Source: a virus
Taxonomy: Duplodnaviria > Caudoviricetes
Virus record (IMG/VR): IMGVR_UViG_3300022181_000117
Span: 1-57,753 of that record
Direction: 5' to 3' (one strand)
Length of the DNA stretch: 57,753 bases
Within the stretch, counting starts at the first letter, position 1; the number at the start of each line of letters is the position of its first letter. The position numbers and the translations under genes were made by a program. Under the pieces are notes generated by a model, which worked only from the letters and a program-made list of their open reading frames with translations, searched no databases and had not been told where the DNA came from. This document shows positions 7,427 to 21,112 of this stretch, piece after piece.

Positions 7427-10400
7427 TTACATGCCCTGTTCCTCGTAGCTTTCGATGACGGCCAGTCGGCTCTTGTTCGGCCGGAGCATCTTTCTCACCT
7501 GGTCCCGCATGGAGTCCCGCGAGATGAGGGGAACCACCCGGCGCATGTCGTGTTCCCGAATGAACGTGTTGTAGCGCTCCACCTTGTCGAGGATGTCCCG
7601 CAACTTGCCGGGGTCCGCTTCGGCATCGGCGAGATAGGCCCGATATTCCTCGTAGATGTTCTTGCGTCGATCCGAAAAATTGGCCTGTTCGCGCCTGGCT
7701 TCCCGTTCGCGGGCCTCGACGGTTGCGCGTCTGCCGGACCGGAATCCCAGGATGCGCCCTGCCGTCTCTCCCCCTGTCGGGATGTAGGGCTTGCCCCGCT
7801 CATCCCATACGCGGTTTCCGCTGCTGGTCGTGGCGCCGTTCAATTCGCGCATGGCTCGCAGGAAGTTGCCAAGAAATCCCGGCGCGGCACGCTCCGCCGC
7901 GCGTCCGGGCTGGCCGGTCGCAAGGTAGTGGCCGGCCCGTCCGATGTCTTCCACGATGCCGCCGAACGCCCCGGTGAGATCGAGCAGCGTTCGCGGGGTC
8001 TGCATGCCAACGGCAAGGGAGCCGGAGAGATCGACCCCGGCCGCGCCGAGAAGACCATGCCGGGCGACCCGTTCGGCTTCTCCGCCGAGGTTTTCCCTGA
8101 TCACGTCGTAGACCATCTTTTCCGGGTCCCGGTCATCGCCCACGGCCCGCATCATGGCCTTGCCGATTTCCATCAGGATGGGAGTCGCCGCCATGGCCGA
8201 AGACCCCGCAAGGACGGCGGGGGAGAGGAGGGCGAAAGTGAACGCCTTGACGTTTCGCTTGTTCGCGCCCAGGTCGTAGAGGGTCTGCAGGTAGTTGTGG
8301 GCGAACTTGGCGTAGGTGTATCCCATCTGGCCGATTTTCGCCGCCGGGTTGCTCCCCATCGACCACATGGGCATCGTGGCCTTGCCGTAGATGCCGTGGG
8401 CCTTGTTGCTGGCGTTGACGGCGGCGTCCGCGGCTTCCTCGTGGGACAGGCCGCGCGCCCGCGCAAGGCGATACCCGGCCAGCATGGTGGAGCCCCGGAT
8501 CCATTCCTCGGATTTGCGGAACATCCACATGGCCTTGTCCATGACCGCCTGCCAGGATTTTCCGTAAGCCCCCGCAAGGTTCGCCATCGCCTCGCGGGTG
8601 AACTGCTCCAGGTTGGCCGAGCCTCTCATGCGCTCCATGAAAGCCTGCTCATCCTTGTTGCCGAGCGTCTTTTTCCCGGTCATGAAGCCCGCGAAATCAC
8701 GGGAAGCGCTCATGAGTTCCTTTCCCACCTTGAACAAGCCGCCCTTGCCCCCCATGGCGTATTCGTGAAGCGCGGGCGGAACGGTGGTGGCCATCGCCGT
8801 GATGTTGGCGAGCACCGTGCGCGGGGAAAAACCGAGGTACTTGAAGCTGACAAGGGATTTGCCGAACGCGATGGCCCGGTCGGTCGCGTCGGGGTTTCTC
8901 AGCATTTCGTGAATGTAGTCCGCGTAAGTCTGGTAGCGCTCCGGTTCCTTCGCGGGGTCGATGCCGCCTTCGTGAACGGATTTGGTTTGCCGGTCGGATT
9001 CGAGTTCCTTTGCCGTGAGCGCAATCGCGTTCGTCACGTCTCCTGCGTCATCCCGCAACACCCACTCGTCGCCTTCCCGTTCGTAGGTCTGGTACTCGCC
9101 CATCAAAGCCTTGAACATCTGCGACGCGGCCTTGCTTTTGGCGATGCCGCCCGCGGTCTGCTGCGCGTACATGAGGTTGCGGGTCAAGGGGTCCGTGATG
9201 TAGCCTCGAACCACGTCCCCTTCGGAGCGCTGGATCTTGTGGGCCCTGAATCCGCGTTCCTTCAGGATGTCGGCTGCGCTCTCCAGGACTTCCTTTCGAA
9301 GCCTTGCCGCGATTTCGGGATCGAGGTCCGCGCCCCTGACGGCCCGGTCCACGGCCGCCTGGATGTCGGGGATGGTGATGTCCTGGTAGATGGATTCGGG
9401 CAGGCGCTCGATGCGCTGCGGATCACTGATGTTCTTGTGACCCTCGCGCTTTAACCGTTCGATGAACTTGTAGGCCGCCCGCCGGGAAGGCTGGTGGAAG
9501 CGGTAGCGCTCTCCGCCCCTAGCCGAGGTGATGAACCAGTCCCCGGCCTCTCGGATCCGGGGGGAGTAGGAGCCCTTAAGCCAGCCCATCTGGTTGTAGA
9601 GGTCTTTCAACGTGACCTGATGGGGTTTGCCTTCCGCGTCCCTTTGCGTTCCAATCACCGGGACCGGCTTGCGAGCCTTCTCATAATGATTGAGCAGTTT
9701 TCGGATATCGGCACTCTGAAGCTCAAGCGCCTCATCGAGCATGTCCCGGATCTTGTCGACGGCCTCGATCACGTCTTTCGGAGCGCCTTCTCGCACGAGC
9801 TTGTCGCGGTAGGGCTCGATGATCTTGCCGTATGCGTCTTTCTGGTAGACGGGGTTGCCGTTTTCATCTTTGTGAACCCTCCACTTCCAGTTCATCCGGT
9901 CCATATAGTCGATGTGATGCCCGATGTCCTGGTATGCCTTCGGAGCGTCAGATTGATCGTAGAGATCGTACCCCTTTTGCCGGGTCCACCATCCCTTGCC
10001 CTTGAACATGACGACCTTCATCGCTTCGGCCACTTCGGGAGCCTTGAGCACCAGGTTCATGATCTGGTGGCGGTCTTCCTCCCGGCCTTGCGCGGCATCG
10101 AAAATGGCCTTCCCGACCTTGTTCTTCCAGTGTTCCGCGGTGATGAAGAGACGCCCGAGAAAGCCGGTTTCGGTGCGTTCCTCAACCCGGCCCGATGCGG
10201 CTTTTATGGTGGAGAGGAATTCATCGCGCCCTGCGTCTTTGAGGGAGAACGCGGGCTTGAATTGTCCTTCCGGGGTCATCAGTGAAAACAGCGGTTGTCC
10301 CTTCATGGCGGACTCGCGCATGGCGTCGGTCACGGGAAGAAAATGGACCATGGATACATCTCGTGTTCCGTGCGCTATCGGGATATTTGTCTCTCCGACC

Positions 10401-13400
10401 CTGGCCCCCCACTTCTTGACGTACTTGTTGACTTCGGAGGGAAGGATTCTGTCGTAGAAGCCTTTCATGCCCTCGCCGCCGACCTTGAGGTCGAGGCCAC
10501 GGAAAGACACTTCTTTCCCTGGTTGTTCGGCTTGTGCAATGATCTTCTCCGAAAGGTCCTTCCCGATGAAATCGGATAGTGCGTCAGGACTCATCGTTTC
10601 TTCGGAATGAATGATCACCCCATCCTTTTCGATGGAGATATTGTAGGTCCCGGGCAGGAAGCTATCTTGGGCGGCATATACGGTATCCACTTGTTTGCTC
10701 AGATCGTATCGCTCCGCCTGAACCGTGCCGGGGTCCCAGGAGATCCCGCCATACCCGTTCTCTGCGGCGTAACGGATCATGCGTTTCATGGCCAGCATGG
10801 CCCAGGAACCGGTTGACGTGACGAACGGGCCGCCAGGAATCATGTGGGCCGTTGCAGTTTGAGCGGGCGATTCCGCCAGTCGCCTGCGAGCTTCTTTTAT
10901 GGCCGCTTCCTCGGTCTTGACTTCAGGGTCGAAGATATTGGTTACAAAATCCCCGTCTTTTGTTGTGACTTCCCAATATCCATTGGAGTTCTCCGCATGG
11001 AGTTCCTGCTTGGCGAAATCTTTACGGAATCCTTTCTTCCTTCCCTCCTGCGCCCAATCGCTCTGCACTTCTGCAATGTGAAGCAGCTTCTCTCCGTCGG
11101 GACCGGTACGGTCATCGAAGCGCACATGGGCGAAAACGTTGGGCTCGGTCCAATGGGGGGATCGATAATTGCGTGTCGTATCGAGAGCAGCGCGGAAAAT
11201 CCCGTTGGGCGAATCCACGGCTTTTTCGTCTTTGGATACCGGTAACGTCAGCAGCAGTTCCCGGTAATTCTCCCCGCCCGGCTGGGTATACATGTCGTAG
11301 CGTGTTTCCTGGACTATCCCCATCTTCCGTGCAACGAGACGTAGGTCGTCCGGGAGTATTTGTGCTTTCCGGATTCGTTCCAGCAGTTCTTCCCTGGAAG
11401 CTTCTTCGATGCTGTCGAGATCGGCGAATTCCTCGTAGCCGAGAGAATCCACAATAGCCGCAGCTTCGCGGAGTTCCTCATCGCTCATGGCATGCCATCT
11501 GAGCCCCCTATACTTCGTCGCTTCCTCGATTTGCACTTCATTTTGCTTCAGGAAGTCCAGGATCTCCTGCTTGCCGATCTTGCCTTTTCGCTCGGCAAGC
11601 CATTCCAATAGACCGGACCATTGCAGTTCCTCCGCCTTGAATTCGCCCTTATTGGCCCAGGAATCGATCATGCTCCGGAAAGTCTCGGATTGCCCGGACC
11701 CGGGGAGTTTGTTGAGCAGGGTCCGTTGAAGTTGAGAATAGAACATGGGGGCCGCTTGCGAATAACGCGGGGTGAATGCGCCTTGAGAGCCCGGCCTGAA
11801 AGCTCCGCCCGATTCCACAGCCCGCCCGGCCCGCGCCACGAGAGCCTTGATGTCGGCCTCGGTGAGCCGGATGGTGAAGCCGATGTTCCTCAACGCTTCC
11901 CGGATCGCCGCATAGAGGCGTTTGAGAAATCCGGGCTTCTCGCCCTTCTCCGCCATGCGGGCGATCTTCTCGCGGGCGGCGCTCATTCTGCCGTCCCGGG
12001 TGCTGAGATCGAAACCGTAAAGGTCGGCAACTTCCTGGAGTCCTTTCTTGCCGTACAGCATGAAGACTTCCCTCAGGAAGGGTTGGAGCCGGTCTCCAAG
12101 GAGCGCCTCGACGCCGTAGTGCCCGACGAGCTCATGGAGCAGGACTTCCTGCAACCGCTCGGGCGTCGGAATGTTCTCGCCGACAAGGTAGACCGCGCCG
12201 GTTTCTCGGTCGTAGGCCGCCTCGGGAATGCCGCCTCTGTCCTTGGCCTCTTCGGCTACGTGCGCCGGAAGATCGTCCACCGAGTTGACCACTTCGACCC
12301 GGGGACCGCCGGGGAGCTTTTCGACAATGGGCTTGAGAATTCGCTGAAATTGTTGTATATTATTTAGTGTGGGGCCACGGAGCGTTTCAGGACGTTGAGA
12401 GAGGGGCTCTTCGGAGCGCGAAAACGCATCGGAGGGAGCACTGCTTGCCGTGGCCTTTCCTGTTTTTTTGTACATGGTCTTCGGGACAAGTTCCCCGGTT
12501 GCAGTTCTGACTTCTTCCAGGTAATAAACAAATCCGTTGACACGCTTGATGTATTGTATTACCCGGTTTCCATGCTTGGTTATCGATTTGCCAAGACGGA
12601 TCTTATTCGGTGGTTGGATGATTTCAGGTATGTGCAGGATATCTTCCCTGGTTATTGCAGCCTGCCCGCGCAAAGCCTCTCTTGCTTCATTTCCGTGTTG
12701 CTTCAGGATGTGCCGAATCGAATAATTGTCAACAATGTGCGCGTAGCCGGAAACGTCAATCTTGGCATCCTTTTCGATCCTGTCCGCTTCTTCCTCGTCA
12801 GCCTTCCGGATTTCGACTTTCCTGACCTTGCCCGCCGGGTTTTCCATGGCGTAATCGAAGAGATCGGAGAGCTTCCACTTGAGTTCGCTATCCCGCGAAA
12901 TGGAAAATGCGGCCCTGCGGCCGCCCGGCCGATACGGTGCGGTTTCATCCACGATGGGCCGGTTCCTGGTCAGTCTGGCAAGGACCGTCTCGCCCTCCTC
13001 ACCCGTTGGGACGAAATATCGCGTAGTGTATTGAATTCTCTCCCGGAAAATTCCGGCATCGTCGAGTTCCTTGTCATGAGCGTAATTCGGTCCGGTGAGC
13101 TCGATTCTCTTTTCGCCGGACACCCATCTTTCGGCCAGGCTCCAGTTGTTTGCCAGGCGCAAGGTGAAACCCTTGCCGAGAAGATCGATGGCCTTTGCCG
13201 GGGTATACTGCACATCGCTCCGGGATGCCCCGAGATTTGCAAGAACCTCGTTCAAGTCCTGGTGATTGATGAGTCTTCCGAGAAACCGCTTGCCGTCGCT
13301 CGTCTGCAGGCGGACGATTCGAGTGCTTCCCGTAAGGCGGTCCCAAATGGGAAGGACGGCCCCGGTTATCATGTGGGTTCTTTCGGTCACGGTTTTCGGT

Positions 13401-16400
13401 GCTTCCGCGAGATGTTTCTCCCATGCCTCTCGCGCCGCATCGCCTTCGAGCTTCGTCCACTTCTTGGTGTCGGTCAGTTCATCTTCGTGGACCTGCTGCG
13501 CCTTGGTGGCCGGGGATTTCAACGTGGCAACGTTGTAGACTTCTCCCGTCTTGTTGTTCGTTGTGGAACGGATAGGGCCGGCCGCCCAAATCTTCCCGCT
13601 CCTGACATTCCGGTAAATTCCGGTCTTGGCAAACCGCTGGCCTTCGGCGTAAGTCATCCGCGGAGCCGGATTGGTGATATCGACTTCCACGTATTTCGTC
13701 TCGGCCCCGGTCTTTTCATCCTTGTGGACCGTCTCTTCCTTGACGAGTACGATCTTGTCGGCGTGGATGTTCTCAAGGCCCTGATCGAGCGTCCCGAATT
13801 CGATCTCTCTTTCAATGACGGTATCGAGTTGATCCGAGAAGGCGTCGAAGACGGCATTCTGAGCTTCATACTTGAGAGAAAGAAGGCGGTTCAGAAACTG
13901 AGTCATCTGTGGATAACTGAAAGTCTGATTGCCGGTTTCGTTGATAAGTTTCAGACCTGTCTGCCGCTCGAATTCCTCGATGCCGACGCCGCCGATATGT
14001 CCATCCTGAAAGAGTTTGTCGATCGTGCGGAGAAGAGCTTCCTGGGCATATCTGCTTTCAAGATTATCCCTGGCCGTGAAGAATCCCTGGCTTCCGGCCT
14101 GGCGCTGTCCCTTGGTGAGCGCTCCAAGCTGATCAAGCCTCCGGGCGATGGAGGATATGAAGCGTGCCTGTCCTTTTAGATCGGTGGTCACCAGTAGATA
14201 ATGCGGGGCCTGTCGTTGATTGGTCCGGTGAGTGCGCCCAAAACCCTGAACGGCTACATCGGCCCGCCATCCCGGTTGCACCAGGAAATGAATGCGCTTC
14301 TCCTGGTTCTTCGCGGTCAGGTCGGCATGGTAGCTGAGTCCGGTTCCGCCCGCCGACGAGAAGATGAGGACGCGCTTCTTCCCGGCCTGGAACGCTGAGG
14401 CGTCCGCTTCAGTCTTGGCCTTGCTCCTGGACTCCTTGACTCTGTGGCCGTCCTCGCCGACCACGACCCGCTGAGTTCTCCCGGTTATCTCGGCCACGTT
14501 TTTCGCGCCGAATTCGTTCAGGATCATTTCCATTGGGCCGTCCGGAACCTTGATGCTTCCGATTTCGTCAAGGAGCCGTTCCCTCATCTCAACGGCTTCA
14601 CGGTTCTGAACGGGGTTGCCGTTGGAATCGAGCACCATCTGCGCTCGAATATTGCCGTTGTCGTCCATGTATTCTTCGTATTGAAAAACCGGGAAACTGT
14701 GCGCGATGTATTGAGCCAGCTGGTCGCGCGGCGTAAGATCGAGATCCTCCAGGGTATCTTCCTCGCCGAGCTTGGCAATCGCGCGGTTCAGGCTCGCTTC
14801 GTTGGTATTCACGAGTTGAATCACGCAGGAATTCCCCGTATCCAGTTCTTGATGCATGCGTTTCAATACGGACGGCATCTGGAGGGAGGTAATGATCTGG
14901 TTGAAAAACCTCTGATGCGAGCCCCAAAAGGCGGCCATGGCCGCGCCTTTGGCATCTCCGTTCATGAATGCCCCGGTCACTTCCAGTGCCTTGTTGACGT
15001 TGTTCAAGACCACCTGCCACCCTTCGGCCAGCTTGTCGTAAATCCCGCGTTGTTCGTCGGAAAGAGAGTGCTCCAGGCGGTCATAAGTCACGTCATGATA
15101 GGATAGGGACCGGGCAAGGTATTTGCCCATGGCCTTGAGATCGCGGGCAACCAACTCCATGGCCGCGATCCCTCCGGAGGAAATTTGGGAGACAAACGCC
15201 TTCACATTGGGGAATGCCGTTCCGGCCCCCCACAAACCCAGTCGCTTTGCATAGGCCAGATTCAGGACTTCCGTGGCGCCGGTTGCCGAGACATAAACCA
15301 CGCGAGCCTTGGGAAGCCTGTCCTGCAATTCGATTCCGGCAAGGGCCGTTTTCGACGGGTCTTTCGTTCCGCGCTCCCCCTTGACCTGAATGGCGTTGCC
15401 CATCTGGTGCGATTCATCGAAAACGATGACGCCGTCAAAATCCTTCCCGAGCCAATTGACGATCTGGTCGATTCTCTTTTGCGGAGGCATTCCTTCTTCT
15501 TTGGATTTCGTAACGTTTTTCAGTGTGGCGTAAGTGGTAAAAAGAATGCCCTCCTCTGCCTTCACGGGAGTTCCGGGCTTTATTTTCCCGAATTCGAAAA
15601 CCTTCTCCGGATCGTCTCCTATTCCCTCCACGTCTCTGCGTGCGTCCTTGAACAGACTGGAGTTCGCGCTGAGCCATACGCCTTGTTTGCGGCCCTTGTT
15701 CCAGTTGTCCAGGATGATGCCTGCGATTTCACGGCCCTTCCCGACGCCGGTCCCATCACCGATGAAATATCCTTGGCGCTCCCCGCTCTCAAGCATCGCG
15801 TTATGTGCTTGGCCGGCACGCACCACGTTCTCCAATTGAGCGTCGGAGAGTTTGCCTTCCTTGATGATCTTTTCGGGAATGGACGGACGATAGGCGACCG
15901 GCGGCGGCTTGACCGTCGCCATGGCGGCGCTTTCAACGAGGGTCCCGGGATGGGGTTTGGCTTTGGATATTGAAACGGTAGACTTGTACTGATCGTAAAC
16001 GGAATCGGAAAGCGCGGTTTTGGCGGCTTCCTCCTCGGCCTGCCGAACTTCTAGAGGTCCGGTCTCCCGGAGGCCACCATCTGGCTCCAAACCTGGTCGA
16101 GAAGGCTCCACGCGAACTGGAGTGGGGGCTTGTCCTTGTCTTCCAGAAGTCCCGGAAGGGCGCTCCCTCCTTCCTTGTCCTTTCCCTCCAAGATCTTCAT
16201 GGTATCCTTCGGATCGCCCAGGCTGAATGCCTCCACGGTCGCCTCTAACCTGTTGTCCAGGTCGAGTTCCCCCGTGCGGATGGCCCACAACATCAGCTGG
16301 TGCGCGTGGAGAAACGAGTAATCCACCTTCTCGCCCGCCTTCTCCAAGGCTTTCAATGCGGCCTGGTTGAGGGGCACTCTGTTGAGCCAGTTCACCAGTT

Positions 16401-19400
16401 TCTGTTTGTTGGCGGGCATCTCTGACTCCTTTGAGAATGGGCGGCGCTTCCTTCACATCTTCAACGCTTCCCTTGACGATATCATAGCCTTTGGGCTCTA
16501 TTTTGTCAATTATTATCAAACGGTTGTCAAAGCTTGTTCCGTACTTTTGATATCCCTTCCCGGACAAACCAATATCCGCGCGGACCGCATATTTACCGGT
16601 GATCTTATTCCACCACTTACGAAAAGCGGGCGCATCCATGGCCATTCCGCGACCGACTATCGCAACGAGCCTCCCGCCGGATTGCAGACGGTTCAACGCC
16701 TGTTCGATATGACGTTCGGCGTTGCTGGTTTTGCGTTGCCCGGTGATCCTTCCCGCCGTCGATGAAAAGGGCGGATTCATGATGATGATGGTGGGCCTGA
16801 CATCATCGGGCAGGATGTTGTCGAGCTGCTCCGCGTTCTCCGTGAAGACGCGATCGAATCCCATCTGTTTAAGAATCCCGGCCCGGCGCTCGGAGAACTC
16901 ATTCACATAGGTCCTGGCACCCGATGCTTTGGCAAATACCGCAAGACCGCCAATACCCGCGCTCGGCTCAAGAACCGTGTCCTTCCCGGTGATGTTCGCG
17001 GCCCAGGCCGCCAGGTAGGCGAGAGGGGGCGGAGTCGAAAACTGCTGAAACTCATCCATCTCGGCGGTGCGCTTGGACTGCGTGGGAAGCAGATTGATGA
17101 GGCGCTGCAACGCCTTGATCTGGTCCTTTGCGGCATCCATGTCGGCCGGAAGAGCTTCCCCTGTGAAATGGTCGAGGATGTACTGATTGACGCCCATCTC
17201 CATGGCATCGTAGGCATCCTTGGGGGTGTATTTGCCTTCCGCCTGGCTCCCGCCGAACGCTTCATTGCCCTTGGCGAAAAGATCCTTGGCGGAAAACATC
17301 TTTCCGGCGGCAATCTTGTCCTTCACCCAGGCGGCGAGTTGCCGGCTTGCGGATGATGCGGGAGCTGTTTCCGTTTTTGTTGTCGGAACAATCTCGGCCT
17401 TCGCGCCGGGTTGAGGGATGACCGGATAATTCTTTAAGGCATCGAGATATTCCTCGACGTGGTCCCCCAAACTGATTTCAGAGGGTTCTTTCCGTACCTT
17501 TTCCCCGGCCTGTTTCAGCTGTTTTCCGTATTTCTCTGCAAGATCCGGATATCGATTCAGCACTTCAGGTGGAATGATCTTGTTTTCTTTGAGTGCCGTC
17601 TCGACATGCTGACGATGAGCGACGGAAGCCGTTTGTTCAAAATGCTTTTCCGTTCCAACCAGAAATCCATGAGTTTCAGGAAGAAAGGGCTTCTTCAATT
17701 TCGTTTTGGCTTGCTCGGTGAACTCTTCCCGCGTCATCTCATGGGGCTGTTTTTCCGGACGGCTCTGTTTTTCAATGTCCCTGAGCACCCCCGGCAGTTC
17801 CTCGAAAGAATAAACCGCGTCGTGCTTGTCGATGGTGAACCGGAGTTTCGTGACATCGGTCTTCGGATCGAGCAGCACTTCATTGGCCGATTCGCCGCGT
17901 CCGACGATGGATTCCCGTGGCGCCACGATGCCCACCGGAACGTGCTCGTAATCCCCGTACATGGGAATGACCGGTTTGTCCCTGGTCGTGATCTCGGTCG
18001 CGCTGATTCCCGGCCGTCCTTCGAAAGATCGGCCTTCGCGCAATCGCTTGTTCTCCAACAGATATTGGAGTTCTTCGACATCGGTGGCACGGACTGCGGA
18101 ACCGAGAGGAATGTTTCCCGCCGCAACTTCACGTTGGATCACGTCTTTGACGTGCGCCTTCTCTTCGGCGATTTCCCTGGTGGTTGTAGGGGCCGCCTCG
18201 ATCTTATCGACGCTGTGCGCGGCTTCTTCAAGGGCAGCCTCAAGGTCGCTGCTCAACCTCGGGCCTTTGGGCTTTTCTGGACGTTCCTCCTGGATCGGTT
18301 TCTGTTCTTGAGCGCTTTCTTCCTGAGAAAGCGCCGCCTCCAATTCCCTTATGGCCTCGGCCGTACTCTCGACTCTGCGCTGTGAAGCGGCCACGTGGTT
18401 TGCGTTCAGCCATAGATTAGTCTCAAGACCATGCCCCATGCTCTTGTCGTAGTCGCTGACGGCGGCCTCTCCGCGAGTTTCGAGATCGGCCTTTCGAGCG
18501 AGATCGCGGGCGAGTTCCCTCCTGGCTTGCTCATGTTCCGCCCGGGCCTTTTGAAGCTTCTTTTCGAGGGCGGTCCTTTCCTTTTTCGTCATCTTCCTCG
18601 CCGGTTCGGGCTTTCCCATGGCCGGAGCCTGCGGCGCTACCTCGCCTTCCCGCCGCCCTTCCGGTGCTTGAAATACTCCACCTGCCGGAGCCGCTCGTTC
18701 GCCTGCGCCTCGCTCGGGTACGGGCCCCCCAGCCGCTTCTTGCCGTCCTCGGAGCGCACTTCCCATCCCTGCCTGGTTTTCACCTTCATAAGCCTGTCCT
18801 TCCTTGTAAGAAACGGGTTTCTTCGTTTGCTTCGGGTTTCTCACCCATCGTTTGAATTCCTTCATGCCCATTCCGGTGACGGCGCCCTTGCCCTGCCAGC
18901 CGGGGGCATAGTTCTGCCGGTAAATCTGTTCCGCCTCCGCCTGGCTGTTTGCGCCGAGAATCACCTTGTGTTCATCGAATTTCCCGGTTCCCGGGTCGAT
19001 CTGGTCGACCACGTAGGCCCGCTCGCTCGTGGGGTTCGGGCCGATGAACGCATCGACGTGGTCCTTGTCTTTTCCCTTGGTACCCAGGATGTAGCCGTAA
19101 TGATTTTGAAGCGTGGATTCCCAGCGCTTTCCCTCCTTGTCCGTCCCGGAGCGAATGGAGCCTTGCGGGTTCTCGATGCTGATTCCAAGCCCCTGGAAAT
19201 TCACCCGGCCTTTCTTGTAGTTCCCGGCTTCCTTCTGAGCCTCGGTCGGCTCCGGGCGTTCGTTCAGCGGAGAAGTCGCCGCCTCGTGGGCCTTCCGGTC
19301 GATGGTTTCGAGCGGAGCCTCGGCACTTTCGGGAGGCAGTGCCGGAGCGGCGGGTTCGACCGCGGGGGGCATCGGGTAGTTTTCCCGCCGGATGCCCTGG

Positions 19401-21112
19401 AGGGCTTCCCCGGCCAGGCGGTCTCTCAGAAGCTCCGCTCCCGCCGGAGACTGCATGCGGTTGAAGTCCTTGAGGAACACGCCGGCCGATTCCGCAGCCG
19501 ACTTGGAGACGGGTTGGAGCGGCTCCCGGCGGATGGCTCCCCCCTGGAGAAGGTCGCTCGTCTCGCTTCCGGGCATGGCGACAGGACCGGCGCTTTCCGT
19601 GTGCGGGGCTCCGGCGAGGATGTTGCTGCTGTCCGGGACTCTTTGAGCCCGTTCCATCTGTTGCTCGTAGAGCTCCTGCACGGCCATGCCGTCCGAGAGT
19701 TGCTGTTGACGGCGGGAGATGGCGCCCTGGTCGATGTTTTCGGGCGGGAAATTACGGCCGTACTGGTCCCAATACTGCTGTTCGGCCTCAATTTCCTCCC
19801 GTGTGGTCGGAACCGGGCGCCGGTCGATGTCCGAATAGAGTTTCTGCAGCTGGGCCAGTTCGGCTTGCTGCTCGTCGGTGCGCTGCCCCTCGGGCACCCC
19901 GGAAAGCTCGTCGATTCGCTTTTGGAGCATCGAGGCGTCGCGCCCGCGCGCGAGCCGCGAATAAGCCCCGCCGATCCCGCCGAACACCCCGCCGCCCACC
20001 GCTCCGGCCATGCCCGCCTCGAACATCCGCGCGGCGTTCTCCCCCGTGAACGCCTCGAACGTGGGGTCCGCGATGGCGAGGTTGGCGATGGAGAGCAACT
20101 CCTGCCCGGCTTCCTGCGCGAATTCCTGCGGGGCCTGGACGGCGGCCTCCTTGATGATGGAGCCGAGAAGGGACGTGTCCGCCTTTTCGAGCGCCTTCCT
20201 GAAGAGGGCCGTCTTTTCCGGCCCCACGATTCTCGATATGGTCCGGTAACTGCCGCCCGCAAGTTCCAGGAAAGACGAAGCGAGGCCCGTGGCCGCCGCC
20301 GTCAGGGGAGCGTCCGCGCCGCGCTCCGTCAGGGCTTCGGCGTAATTGCCCCCCGCCTCCAGGGGAAAGGTTCCGGCCACAACGCCCGTCGCGCCCCCAA
20401 GGGAGCGCATGGCAAGTTTCGATGCCGCCCGTTCCGCGACCTCCCGGGAAATCCCCCTGGTGACCATTTCCCCGGCCATCTTCTCGATGGATTTCTTGAG
20501 CGCCGTTTTGCCCAGCAGCCCCGCCGCCGCGCCCACGACCGTTCCGCCCACCGGCTCCACCGCGCTCCCCGCCGCCGCTCCCAGCAAGGCCATGCCCACG
20601 CTTTCCGCGACGCTCGGGAGCAGCTCGCCGACTTTCCCCGCTCCGTACTTATAGGCGGAAACCGGGCCGGTGATGTCCCGGAAGCTCGGCACCGACGCCG
20701 GATTCAACTCGGCTTCCTCCACGTTTCGGCGGTATCCCTCGATGCCCCAATTCTTCAGGCGGTCGATGCCCATGGCCGAACCGGCAAGCCCCGCCATGCC
20801 GTAAAGGGACGACTGCATCTGATCGATGCCCCGGAGCACCCCCCTCGTCAATTCCCCGCGCTTCTCCATGTTTTCCCGCGCGATTCCGCGCCGCTGCGCC
20901 TGGTAGGCTTCTTCCAGCATCGGATCCGGGGATGCGCCGTAAGCCGCCGGGGATGAAGGTCTTTGAATGGCCCGGGAAACGGGCGCGGCGGTTTCCGTGC
21001 CCTCACCGGGAGCCTCCGGTTCCCGCGGCGAAAAGACGGGACCGGCATCCGGCGGCCGCGCCCCGGTGATCGCATCGTATCCCTTGAGGAAATCGTCATA
21101 CGAAATGCCCAA
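7427..21112 (-). CDS. Giant (4561 aa) polyvalent DarB-like internal virion/ejection protein
   Basis: A/G-rich ejection-type N-terminus; inorganic-pyrophosphatase-like domain (~19300-18840, ISIENP..HYGY..KDHVDAFIG); N6-adenine MTase (~17340-16500, VLEPSAGIG, NPPF); Strawberry-notch SF2 helicase (~15970-12950, GDGTGVGKG, DESH, QGFGRTHR); PBECR3-like nuclease (~12880-12470, RHILKQHG); zincin HELVGH (~12130); EVQSDW domain (~11060). TTG start with GGAGG RBS. Confidence 0.9.
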   Translation of the reverse strand: MGISYDDFLKGYDAITGARPPDAGPVFSPREPEAPGEGTETAAPVSRAIQRPSSPAAYGASPDPMLEEAYQAQRRGIARENMEKRGELTRGVLRGIDQMQSSLYGMAGLAGSAMGIDRLKNWGIEGYRRNVEEAELNPASVPSFRDITGPVSAYKYGAGKVGELLPSVAESVGMALLGAAAGSAVEPVGGTVVGAAAGLLGKTALKKSIEKMAGEMVTRGISREVAERAASKLAMRSLGGATGVVAGTFPLEAGGNYAEALTERGADAPLTAAATGLASSFLELAGGSYRTISRIVGPEKTALFRKALEKADTSLLGSIIKEAAVQAPQEFAQEAGQELLSIANLAIADPTFEAFTGENAARMFEAGMAGAVGGGVFGGIGGAYSRLARGRDASMLQKRIDELSGVPEGQRTDEQQAELAQLQKLYSDIDRRPVPTTREEIEAEQQYWDQYGRNFPPENIDQGAISRRQQQLSDGMAVQELYEQQMERAQRVPDSSNILAGAPHTESAGPVAMPGSETSDLLQGGAIRREPLQPVSKSAAESAGVFLKDFNRMQSPAGAELLRDRLAGEALQGIRRENYPMPPAVEPAAPALPPESAEAPLETIDRKAHEAATSPLNERPEPTEAQKEAGNYKKGRVNFQGLGISIENPQGSIRSGTDKEGKRWESTLQNHYGYILGTKGKDKDHVDAFIGPNPTSERAYVVDQIDPGTGKFDEHKVILGANSQAEAEQIYRQNYAPGWQGKGAVTGMGMKEFKRWVRNPKQTKKPVSYKEGQAYEGENQAGMGSALRGRQEAAGGPVPERGAGERAAPAGGVFQAPEGRREGEVAPQAPAMGKPEPARKMTKKERTALEKKLQKARAEHEQARRELARDLARKADLETRGEAAVSDYDKSMGHGLETNLWLNANHVAASQRRVESTAEAIRELEAALSQEESAQEQKPIQEERPEKPKGPRLSSDLEAALEEAAHSVDKIEAAPTTTREIAEEKAHVKDVIQREVAAGNIPLGSAVRATDVEELQYLLENKRLREGRSFEGRPGISATEITTRDKPVIPMYGDYEHVPVGIVAPRESIVGRGESANEVLLDPKTDVTKLRFTIDKHDAVYSFEELPGVLRDIEKQSRPEKQPHEMTREEFTEQAKTKLKKPFLPETHGFLVGTEKHFEQTASVAHRQHVETALKENKIIPPEVLNRYPDLAEKYGKQLKQAGEKVRKEPSEISLGDHVEEYLDALKNYPVIPQPGAKAEIVPTTKTETAPASSASRQLAAWVKDKIAAGKMFSAKDLFAKGNEAFGGSQAEGKYTPKDAYDAMEMGVNQYILDHFTGEALPADMDAAKDQIKALQRLINLLPTQSKRTAEMDEFQQFSTPPPLAYLAAWAANITGKDTVLEPSAGIGGLAVFAKASGARTYVNEFSERRAGILKQMGFDRVFTENAEQLDNILPDDVRPTIIIMNPPFSSTAGRITGQRKTSNAERHIEQALNRLQSGGRLVAIVGRGMAMDAPAFRKWWNKITGKYAVRADIGLSGKGYQKYGTSFDNRLIIIDKIEPKGYDIVKGSVEDVKEAPPILKGVRDARQQTETGELAQQSAPQPGRIESLGEGGREGGLLVSPRAPADVVGHPHGGTRPGQQVRGDRGGIQPGRSEGYHEDLGGKGQGRRERPSGTSGRQGQAPTPVRVEPSRPGLEPDGGLRETGPLEVRQAEEEAAKTALSDSVYDQYKSTVSISKAKPHPGTLVESAAMATVKPPPVAYRPSIPEKIIKEGKLSDAQLENVVRAGQAHNAMLESGERQGYFIGDGTGVGKGREIAGIILDNWNKGRKQGVWLSANSSLFKDARRDVEGIGDDPEKVFEFGKIKPGTPVKAEEGILFTTYATLKNVTKSKEEGMPPQKRIDQIVNWLGKDFDGVIVFDESHQMGNAIQVKGERGTKDPSKTALAGIELQDRLPKARVVYVSATGATEVLNLAYAKRLGLWGAGTAFPNVKAFVSQISSGGIAAMELVARDLKAMGKYLARSLSYHDVTYDRLEHSLSDEQRGIYDKLAEGWQVVLNNVNKALEVTGAFMNGDAKGAAMAAFWGSHQRFFNQIITSLQMPSVLKRMHQELDTGNSCVIQLVNTNEASLNRAIAKLGEEDTLEDLDLTPRDQLAQYIAHSFPVFQYEEYMDDNGNIRAQMVLDSNGNPVQNREAVEMRERLLDEIGSIKVPDGPMEMILNEFGAKNVAEITGRTQRVVVGEDGHRVKESRSKAKTEADASAFQAGKKRVLIFSSAGGTGLSYHADLTAKNQEKRIHFLVQPGWRADVAVQGFGRTHRTNQRQAPHYLLVTTDLKGQARFISSIARRLDQLGALTKGQRQAGSQGFFTARDNLESRYAQEALLRTIDKLFQDGHIGGVGIEEFERQTGLKLINETGNQTFSYPQMTQFLNRLLSLKYEAQNAVFDAFSDQLDTVIEREIEFGTLDQGLENIHADKIVLVKEETVHKDEKTGAETKYVEVDITNPAPRMTYAEGQRFAKTGIYRNVRSGKIWAAGPIRSTTNNKTGEVYNVATLKSPATKAQQVHEDELTDTKKWTKLEGDAAREAWEKHLAEAPKTVTERTHMITGAVLPIWDRLTGSTRIVRLQTSDGKRFLGRLINHQDLNEVLANLGASRSDVQYTPAKAIDLLGKGFTLRLANNWSLAERWVSGEKRIELTGPNYAHDKELDDAGIFRERIQYTTRYFVPTGEEGETVLARLTRNRPIVDETAPYRPGGRRAAFSISRDSELKWKLSDLFDYAMENPAGKVRKVEIRKADEEEADRIEKDAKIDVSGYAHIVDNYSIRHILKQHGNEAREALRGQAAITREDILHIPEIIQPPNKIRLGKSITKHGNRVIQYIKRVNGFVYYLEEVRTATGELVPKTMYKKTGKATASSAPSDAFSRSEEPLSQRPETLRGPTLNNIQQFQRILKPIVEKLPGGPRVEVVNSVDDLPAHVAEEAKDRGGIPEAAYDRETGAVYLVGENIPTPERLQEVLLHELVGHYGVEALLGDRLQPFLREVFMLYGKKGLQEVADLYGFDLSTRDGRMSAAREKIARMAEKGEKPGFLKRLYAAIREALRNIGFTIRLTEADIKALVARAGRAVESGGAFRPGSQGAFTPRYSQAAPMFYSQLQRTLLNKLPGSGQSETFRSMIDSWANKGEFKAEELQWSGLLEWLAERKGKIGKQEILDFLKQNEVQIEEATKYRGLRWHAMSDEELREAAAIVDSLGYEEFADLDSIEEASREELLERIRKAQILPDDLRLVARKMGIVQETRYDMYTQPGGENYRELLLTLPVSKDEKAVDSPNGIFRAALDTTRNYRSPHWTEPNVFAHVRFDDRTGPDGEKLLHIAEVQSDWAQEGRKKGFRKDFAKQELHAENSNGYWEVTTKDGDFVTNIFDPEVKTEEAAIKEARRRLAESPAQTATAHMIPGGPFVTSTGSWAMLAMKRMIRYAAENGYGGISWDPGTVQAERYDLSKQVDTVYAAQDSFLPGTYNISIEKDGVIIHSEETMSPDALSDFIGKDLSEKIIAQAEQPGKEVSFRGLDLKVGGEGMKGFYDRILPSEVNKYVKKWGARVGETNIPIAHGTRDVSMVHFLPVTDAMRESAMKGQPLFSLMTPEGQFKPAFSLKDAGRDEFLSTIKAASGRVEERTETGFLGRLFITAEHWKNKVGKAIFDAAQGREEDRHQIMNLVLKAPEVAEAMKVVMFKGKGWWTRQKGYDLYDQSDAPKAYQDIGHHIDYMDRMNWKWRVHKDENGNPVYQKDAYGKIIEPYRDKLVREGAPKDVIEAVDKIRDMLDEALELQSADIRKLLNHYEKARKPVPVIGTQRDAEGKPHQVTLKDLYNQMGWLKGSYSPRIREAGDWFITSARGGERYRFHQPSRRAAYKFIERLKREGHKNISDPQRIERLPESIYQDITIPDIQAAVDRAVRGADLDPEIAARLRKEVLESAADILKERGFRAHKIQRSEGDVVRGYITDPLTRNLMYAQQTAGGIAKSKAASQMFKALMGEYQTYEREGDEWVLRDDAGDVTNAIALTAKELESDRQTKSVHEGGIDPAKEPERYQTYADYIHEMLRNPDATDRAIAFGKSLVSFKYLGFSPRTVLANITAMATTVPPALHEYAMGGKGGLFKVGKELMSASRDFAGFMTGKKTLGNKDEQAFMERMRGSANLEQFTREAMANLAGAYGKSWQAVMDKAMWMFRKSEEWIRGSTMLAGYRLARARGLSHEEAADAAVNASNKAHGIYGKATMPMWSMGSNPAAKIGQMGYTYAKFAHNYLQTLYDLGANKRNVKAFTFALLSPAVLAGSSAMAATPILMEIGKAMMRAVGDDRDPEKMVYDVIRENLGGEAERVARHGLLGAAGVDLSGSLAVGMQTPRTLLDLTGAFGGIVEDIGRAGHYLATGQPGRAAERAAPGFLGNFLRAMRELNGATTSSGNRVWDERGKPYIPTGGETAGRILGFRSGRRATVEAREREARREQANFSDRRKNIYEEYRAYLADAEADPGKLRDILDKVERYNTFIREHDMRRVVPLISRDSMRDQVRKMLRPNKSRLAVIESYEEQGM
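12333..12361 (+). promoter_or_regulatory. Antisense sigma70 promoter inside the giant gene
   Basis: TTGAGA (12333-12338), 17 bp, TATATT (12356-12361) in an AT-rich patch within GC-rich coding DNA. Confidence 0.65.
12368..12469 (+). ncRNA. Candidate structured antisense small RNA (~100 nt)
   Basis: Closing stem GGCCACGG (12373-80) / CCGTGGCC (12448-55); inner stem GCGTTT (12382-87) / AAACGC (12422-27); GCTC-TTCG-GAGC tetraloop hairpin (12406-17); T7 tract (12463-69). Confidence 0.55.
16051..16419 (-). CDS. Nested (overprinted, +1 frame) 122-aa helical protein inside the giant gene
   Basis: AAAGGAG 7 nt before the ATG and its own promoter upstream. Globular amino-acid composition, whereas the host frame here is G/R/P low-complexity. 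Confidence 0.75.
   Translation of the reverse strand: MPANKQKLVNWLNRVPLNQAALKALEKAGEKVDYSFLHAHQLMLWAIRTGELDLDNRLEATVEAFSLGDPKDTMKILEGKDKEGGSALPGLLEDKDKPPLQFAWSLLDQVWSQMVASGRPDL
16481..16509 (-). promoter_or_regulatory. Internal near-consensus sigma70 promoter for the nested gene
   Basis: TTGACA (16509-16504), 17 bp, TATGAT (16486-16481), ~60 bp upstream of ATG 16419. Confidence 0.75.
18637..18789 (-). CDS. Nested (overprinted, +1 frame) 50-aa basic protein inside the giant gene
   Basis: Hand-translated MKVKTRQGWEVRSEDGKKRLGGPYPSEAQANERLRQVEYFKHRKGGGKAR*; RBS AAGGAAGG upstream; below the ORF-track cutoff. Confidence 0.65.
   Translation of the reverse strand: MKVKTRQGWEVRSEDGKKRLGGPYPSEAQANERLRQVEYFKHRKGGGKAR

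Follow-up and report, generated by a model that had tools for sequence, protein, structure and literature searches.

Evidence for a conserved small gene nested out of frame in a linker of a giant phage polyvalent protein

The DNA analysed here (the window, 57,753 nucleotides at full length) is record IMGVR_UViG_3300022181_000117, an IMG/VR provirus of 57753 bases estimated to be 72% complete. A preliminary description of the window had pointed to a 50-amino acid (aa) open reading frame (ORF) concealed in another frame of a giant gene. Our analysis indicates that this element, at 18637..18789 on the minus strand, is very probably a genuine, separately initiated small gene overprinted on an interdomain linker of the provirus's polyvalent protein. 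The element belongs to a widespread family of small proteins, its frame appears to be the one under purifying selection, and a start codon is present wherever the gene is nested.

The nested reading frame, its family and its host

The ORF comprises 50 codons and a stop (18639-18637), starts with ATG, and is backed by the ORF list, a profile match and an AlphaFold2 model. Its translation is exactly the peptide quoted in the preliminary description (P0001), a basic product with a net charge of about +8 as counted by hand. Upstream on the minus strand one reads AAGGAAGG, then ACAGGCTT, then the ATG. The first of these elements is a purine-rich, Shine-Dalgarno (SD)-like motif read from the sequence at 18798..18805 (minus strand), 8 nt before the start; it is the ribosome-binding site of the preliminary description and accounts for the end coordinate, 18805, given there. 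The whole ORF lies within a 4561-aa ORF (7427..21112, minus strand) and, as had been proposed, in the +1 frame relative to it. By length alone an ORF of 50 aa is within chance: between 16000 and 21000 the giant gene holds 14 same-strand ORFs of at least 30 aa in other frames, eight of them of at least 50 aa. The match of P0001 to the family profile (E = 1.1e-23, model positions 1-44 of 45) is beyond chance.

The family consists of proteins of about 44 aa with the motif G[WY]xVxS..GK.LGGPY....A..RLRQVEYFKH. Stand-alone phage proteins ending in RLRQ(V/I)EYFKH, to which the preliminary description had likened the peptide, do exist and are numerous. All five candidates from a word-indexed homologue search were 44-52 aa long, 62-74% identical to P0001 and ended in RLRQVEYFKH(RKG) or a near variant. 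Scans combining a sequence pattern with tblastn gave 236 pattern matches in viral contigs, 117 of them confirmed as relatives, and 303 in species-representative genomes, with 130 confirmed; 80 loci from each source were retained for inspection. Free-standing homologues, the proposed check of the gene, were thus found in both collections. That the family would be at least as common in cellular genomes had not been foreseen; nor had in-frame fusions, or nesting in polyvalent proteins at no fewer than 13 further loci. The titles of the genome relatives name Acidobacteriota, Patescibacteria, Omnitrophota, Planctomycetes, Proteobacteria, Micrarchaeota and Bathyarchaeota. A profile built from 147 sequences and run against 1.84 billion proteins retrieved 3409 cluster representatives at E<=0.001, of which 1081 at E<=1e-10.

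P0001 is 43-67% identical to the 146 other aligned members. It has all the invariant residues of the family (R33, Q36, V37, E38, F40 and K41, in the numbering of the window) and all the near-invariant ones (G8, V11, S13, L20, A30, L34, R35 and Y39), plus one additional residue, R19, ahead of LGG. From the 147-sequence alignment AlphaFold2 predicts strands at residues 2-5, 8-12 and 19-24 followed by a long helix at 27-46 (mean pLDDT 86.8, pTM 0.61), the very beta-beta-beta-alpha pattern that had been read from the peptide.

The host gene (7427..21112, minus strand) is one continuous ORF read through the nested gene. Pfam places an InPase domain (PF18823; E=5.6e-56) at residues 624-757, or 18842..19243 (minus strand) as computed from the ORF start at 21112. 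In the same translation Pfam finds AAA_34 (residues 1720-2027), Helicase_C_4 (residues 2194-2447) and PBECR3 (residues 2770-2887). Since InPase and the downstream domains lie in a single translation, the host frame is read straight through the nested ORF. Neighbours of the giant gene match PHROGs for tail assembly, head closure and head-tail adaptor/portal, and the host protein itself has a DarB-like PHROG match. With its unrelated predicted effector domains (InPase, AAA_34/ResIII, Helicase_C_4 and PBECR3) and its virion-gene neighbourhood, the host gene is by sequence a phage polyvalent protein. InPase, PBECR3, LPD38 and ddrB-ParB are among the polyvalent-protein domains defined by Iyer, Burroughs, Anand, de Souza and Aravind (2017; PMC5512222), who call InPase, DdrB-ParB and LPD38 phage-type.

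The nested ATG maps to about host residue 775, some 18 residues past the end of InPase at residue 757 (nested codon 6 corresponds to host codon 781). Hence the ORF does sit right after the pyrophosphatase-like domain noted in the preliminary description. The overprinted linker (18635..18790, minus strand; about residues 775-826) is rich in A, G, E, R and P and reads EGENQAGMGSALRGRQEAAGGPVPERGAGERAAPAGGVFQAPEGRREGEVAP in the host frame. By hand count, 36 of the 52 overlap residues are A, G, E or R, which bears out the low-complexity character ascribed to it. Ribosomes in the host frame would read this stretch as a flexible A/G/E/R/P linker between InPase and the next module. Other ribosomes would start at the internal SD-like motif and ATG and make a basic 50-aa protein with three strands and a helix. 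A scan of 18300-19300 for promoters and terminators detected no such site; translation of the nested gene would accordingly use the mRNA of the giant gene. The contig from the sole metatranscriptome run (X7) spans only 18388-18538, outside the nested gene, and has no bearing on its expression. An idea of re-initiation, suggested by a host-frame ATG 17 nt past the nested stop in the window, was dropped as this ATG is not conserved in two other nested loci (L163 and L016).

Selection, initiation and competing explanations

Among ten nested loci, the mean pairwise amino-acid identity is 57.1% in the nested frame versus 33.7% in the host frame, and the nested frame is the more identical in 45 of the 45 pairs, which are pairs of related, not phylogenetically independent, sequences. 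Codon periodicity, read from pairs with the same dependence, follows the nested frame across the overlap. In comparisons of the four InPase-linked loci, the host codon position with the most differences is the third within InPase (e.g. 13/17/50 and 39/41/82). Within the nested gene it is the first, equivalent to nested position 3, in five of six pairs (e.g. 22/11/14 and 20/9/9). Over 18621-19396, a contig from a sludge metagenome (X4) shares about 92% identity with the window. It shows at least four differences inside the nested ORF; those listed all fall at nested third positions and are silent in the nested frame, and each of the same four brings an amino-acid change in the host frame (R>G, A>T, P>A and A>T). 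Over 18790-19145 of this contig, the 36 listed differences split 6/10/20 over host positions 1/2/3, counts consistent with the remaining differences lying beyond 19145. Identity, periodicity and the contig's differences thus all identify the alternative frame as the conserved one, the outcome that the preliminary description had made the test of its proposal. Taken together, these comparisons show a signature of purifying selection acting on the nested frame, the host frame apparently merely staying open.

The start codon behaves in the manner expected of a separate gene. Family position 1 is occupied by a start codon in all 14 distinct nested copies (ATG in 11, GTG in three) and in 122 of 133 free-standing copies, as opposed to none of 13 distinct copies fused in frame to longer proteins, which have CGT, ACA, AAG, GTA and other codons there. 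The difference between nested and fused copies implies that the fold does not need the methionine and that a start codon is kept where a separate start is needed. In 13 of the 14 nested copies a purine-rich motif of the GGAG/AGGA type, read by eye, lies 4-11 nt before the start.

Three other explanations were weighed. The small gene could be a molecular fossil, swallowed in a gene fusion, its DNA now serving as linker only and its second frame a residual, unexpressed one. The host frame must indeed be translated across the nested gene, with InPase and the downstream domains in one frame, and a mosaic junction at the nested 3' end (see below) fits a history of fusion. We nevertheless regard this explanation as very unlikely. 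Although identity among the 14 loci has fallen to roughly 45-77%, the start, the stop and the invariant residues are preserved in all of them; substitutions follow the codon periodicity of the nested frame, and those listed for the sludge contig, a close relative, are silent in it. Moreover, one locus (L180) retains a nested frame open for 76 codons at a G+C content (GC) of 0.40. The module might otherwise be reached by a programmed +1 frameshift, giving a truncated N-terminal fragment (to InPase) that ends in the module, with the SD-like motif as stimulator. SD-like sequences stimulate frameshifting in prfB and dnaX, and some in-frame fusions do place the module at the extreme C-terminus (residues 267-307 of 308 in L023-26; residues 487-527 of 532 in L024). 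This explanation appears highly improbable when set against the position of the start codons, exactly at family position 1 in nested copies and never in fused ones, and against the stops that precede them in the nested frame. Such stops lie two codons before the start in L061, five in L006 and L016, and eight to nine in L079 and L001, confining a slip to a tiny window; the closest (L061, L006 and L016) leave hardly any space in which a ribosome could slip out of the host frame. Finally, the frequency of other-frame ORFs of at least 50 aa within the giant gene (the eight counted above) could favour an artefact: an ORF present by chance in GC-rich DNA, or a domain thrown out of its true frame by assembly errors. 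The homology expressed in the profile match already refutes chance. As to assembly, 14 independent assemblies share the arrangement, each with a nested-frame stop and an unbroken host frame, and contigs of two other public runs match the window over part or all of the ORF, with no differences at 18643-18993 (X2) and 18751-18905 (X3). An artefact is thus scarcely credible.

Some points weigh against a separately initiated gene. Support for a separate 50-aa product is wholly comparative, and the pairs behind the identity and periodicity counts share ancestry. The closest pair, the window and L162, has a flat periodicity in the nested part (9/8/7). The sludge contig is a single one, at a depth of 4.3, and further differences inside the ORF are possible beyond those listed. 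In L180, the locus of low GC, no SD motif is recognisable. The module is also found in only four of 50 records with a related InPase polyvalent protein, nested in all four and missing from 46; among the records that are at least 90% complete it occurs in two of 23. None of the 46 records without a nested copy has a free one, in a search that covered the first 50 of the 80 loci. The module is therefore accessory, dispensable for this phage type, and its distribution argues against an obligate tie between module and InPase.

Even with these points counted, a separately initiated gene remains the reading we favour, and the locus has the attributes of an embedded gene: same strand, other frame, host domains on both sides, start signals of its own and signs of purifying selection in the nested frame. 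The closest parallel is lambda Rz/Rz1: the larger gene, Rz, wholly encloses a small phage gene that uses the +1 frame and a start of its own, and the arrangement is conserved across phages. The passages on embedded spanins in PMC5295617 and PMC6139136 describe an o-spanin gene inside the i-spanin gene, with both frames translated. The likeness has limits. In lambda, the two products work together as subunits of a single machine, and Rz is functional protein where the genes overlap, whereas the host frame is here a low-complexity linker with no constraint seen beyond staying open. Also unlike Rz1, the nested family is common as free-standing genes in cells and phages, pointing to a gene that was captured, not born in the overlap.

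What is new is the nesting, in linkers of giant phage proteins, of a small gene that was captured and is widely distributed, the theme of the embedded gene being already known from lambda Rz1. In the main text of the polyvalent-protein paper (PMC5512222) the words "overlap" and "frameshift" do not occur and "reading frame" occurs once, in an unrelated sense; a gene hidden in a linker is thus not described in that main text, though the supplementary domain lists could name the module otherwise. A literature search on polyvalent proteins with overlapping genes, on small, nested or out-of-frame phage genes and on DUF6316, supplements being outside its scope, yielded no such description. As gene callers disallow a gene within a gene, the nested protein would be invisible in every polyvalent-protein locus.

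Free, fused and nested copies and a possible origin

Six-frame translations of the first 160 loci were scanned with a hidden Markov model of the family and then inspected. The small gene is free-standing in 134 of them, four being ambiguous (L013, L038, L120 and L154). In 15 loci (13 distinct) it is fused in frame within longer phage proteins, and in 11 (10 distinct, with the window counted separately) it is nested out of frame in a long ORF of the same strand. A search with the InPase region brought 80 more loci, five of them (four distinct) with a nested copy. The distinct nested cases number 14 (the window, L001, L006, L016 (=L018), L035, L061, L062, L068, L079, L100, L162, L163, L180 (=L181) and L216), and the offset of the host ORF is identical in 14 out of 14. 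Their hosts are long polyvalent ORFs of 629 to 4576 codons within the DNA analysed, with InPase, LPD38, AAA_34, MTS and ddrB-ParB among their domains. InPase lies upstream of the nested gene in the window, L162, L163 and L180, and downstream in L061 and L216; the flanks of the remaining eight loci have no detectable similarity to those of any other nested locus.

Fused copies (for instance L015, L022, L027 and L033, in proteins of 931-1186 aa on contigs of 34-193 kb, and L049/L066 and L074/L078) represent the same module, of about 42 residues when read in the main frame of the host protein. They differ from nested copies in having neither a start codon at position 1 nor a separate product. In these fusions the module works as part of packaged proteins.

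The fixed offset of the nested copies has a simple cause. Of 130 distinct free-standing genes, 23 leave open the frame corresponding to that of the host, and five the other frame of the same strand. The latter is closed at codon 1 in 115 of the 130, because the common ATGAT (Met-Ile) start, like the ATGAA of the window, contains TGA. The reason for the fixed frame is thus directly readable in the start of the gene; the constant offset stems from a frame constraint and is not evidence of common descent. A family tree from 48 columns leaves 92 of 148 inner branches open. In it the nested copies do not form one well-supported clade, and at least two changes of state are needed to account for the branches with good support. 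The alignment is too short for the number of nesting origins to be counted.

The 3' end of the nested gene coincides with a mosaic junction (18621..18645), where three relatives cease to resemble the window. In blastn alignments the similarity runs from 21198 to 18645 for L162 (82.8%) and from 19291 to 18638 for L163 (67.4%), and the sludge contig departs from the window at 18621; all three end within 0-16 nt of the nested stop. The host proteins of the window and L162 share 80% identity over the 301 residues upstream and show no similarity downstream. In the sludge contig, 443 nt of the window just 3' of the nested gene (18177..18621) are replaced by 110 other letters, a second sign of mosaicism of the host protein at the end of the nested gene.

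These features suggest a history for the overlap. A protein ending in InPase would originally have had the small gene directly after it; PHROG 4660 ("minor head protein") has InPase at its C-terminus (positions 633-763 of 765). Fusion to downstream modules would then have caused the small gene to be read through in the sole frame open to it. We infer that such capture by fusion is the simplest history of the nesting. The overlap would thus have been made by capture of an old gene, not by birth of a new one, and the free, fused and nested states can be compared within one family. The coincidence of nested end and mosaic junction also suggests how giant polyvalent proteins are assembled. Relatives with unrelated downstream parts have an N-terminal block in common that extends to the nested stop. 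One could imagine, as a rather unlikely extension, that the nested gene acts as a portable junction for welding or exchanging polyvalent domain cassettes while also specifying a separately made basic protein that would be packaged with the giant protein. Were this to apply broadly, the linkers of giant phage proteins would systematically conceal independent genes, a 122-aa ORF in the same giant gene (see below) being the second candidate.

Inspection of the loci turned up further arrangements. Residues 1045-1282 of the 2624-codon nested host ORF of L035 (4257-12128) match the central and C-terminal domains of the DNA polymerase III beta-clamp, which are unusual in a polyvalent protein. In L120 (4694-6299), an Alphaproteobacteria contig from a metagenome-assembled genome with a GC of 0.70, the small gene falls within an ORF of 535 codons whose frame is the host-like one; it was not counted as nested, as real nesting and a spurious ORF driven by GC could not be told apart there. 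Tandem modules, in two or three copies with acidic linkers between them, are present in P0011 (515 aa), P0068 (564 aa), P0007 and P0008; P0011 and P0068 gave no match in the Protein Data Bank (PDB).

Relationships, possible function and distribution

The family is a large one without a Pfam or NCBIfam model. P0001 hits no family in Pfam (E<=1) or NCBIfam, and in PHROGs it has only weak matches to phrog_3684 and phrog_2859, both of unknown function. Matches in the ESM Atlas are to "hypothetical protein" clusters only, and a search for longer homologues gave none from two candidates, the fused forms surfacing only in the DNA-pattern and profile searches. A Foldseek search of the PDB gave nothing at E<=0.001 (best 6q2z, E=2.1), a profile search of PDB sequences gave no match, and a structure search of BFVD returned uncharacterised phage proteins only (best E=0.009). 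A likeness to lambda Int and AP2-type DNA-binding domains, seen with VIA-align at Z 3.1-4.1, lies inside the noise of that tool and was set aside.

When all 147 members were scanned against Pfam, weak matches appeared to DUF6316 in 33 (best E 0.0024), to SPOR in 22 and to DUF2188 in 15 (best E 1.9e-5). The family resembles DUF2188 (PF09954) and DUF6316 (PF19837) in that all are small strands-plus-helix domains of unknown function. It differs from them by the RLRQVEYFKH helix motif, specific to the nested-gene family, and P0001, with no Pfam family at E<=1, does not reach the threshold for membership in DUF2188. The relation to these two families is at most that of a distant superfamily. DUF2188 is tied to defence operons in a passage of bioRxiv 10.1101/2022.04.27.489752 that cites Burroughs & Aravind 2020. 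With thousands of sequence clusters over bacteria, archaea and phages, and members that are short, highly conserved and easily synthesised, the family offers a tractable target.

Tentatively, the small basic protein may act in the capsid interior, bind nucleic acid, or both, a possibility that we hold to be doubtful. It is suggested by the basic character of the protein, by the helix being its most conserved surface and by the company the module keeps with phage proteins that enter the capsid. In P0011 three modules lie N-terminal to a region matching head maturation proteases of 580 phage records. The nearest neighbours of free-standing phage copies include genes for the terminase large subunit, an adaptor and an endolysin. 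Less in keeping with such a role, the neighbours of cellular copies are heterogeneous, with 95 Pfam families among 96 neighbours and the commonest, Radical_SAM, found four times; and a wide VIA-align search for a fold produced a best Z of 5.0 (2kvt), which is inside the stated noise of the tool and was rejected as an assignment.

The sole match in a cultured phage is in Aeromonas phage 1233 (OR359403.1), where a free-standing, unannotated copy with 64% identity (L242, 3980-4132) is found; the record has only 28 annotated features.

The 122-aa ORF (16051..16419, minus strand) overlies another low-complexity stretch of the host gene and looks protein-like. Its frame is that of the 50-aa gene, as had been noted before (18789-16419 = 2370 = 3x790). 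No relative of it was found in viral contigs or in the analysed loci; it has one homologue (P0157, 122 aa, 90% identity), a much weaker support than that for the 50-aa gene.

In 27 of the 80 genome loci a 23S rRNA gene lies downstream of the small gene on the same strand, at 560-800 nt in 16 of them. These loci are L082 (6001-6135 and 6698-10096), L083, L086, L097 and 23 others, in which the unit is 23S-5S, with no 16S gene in the 6 kb upstream. A link to the ribosome or rRNA was considered; as it appears to reflect one Acidobacteriota-type lineage, it was not relied on. In L082 a terminator-like hairpin and a promoter-like site are located between the small gene and the 23S gene.

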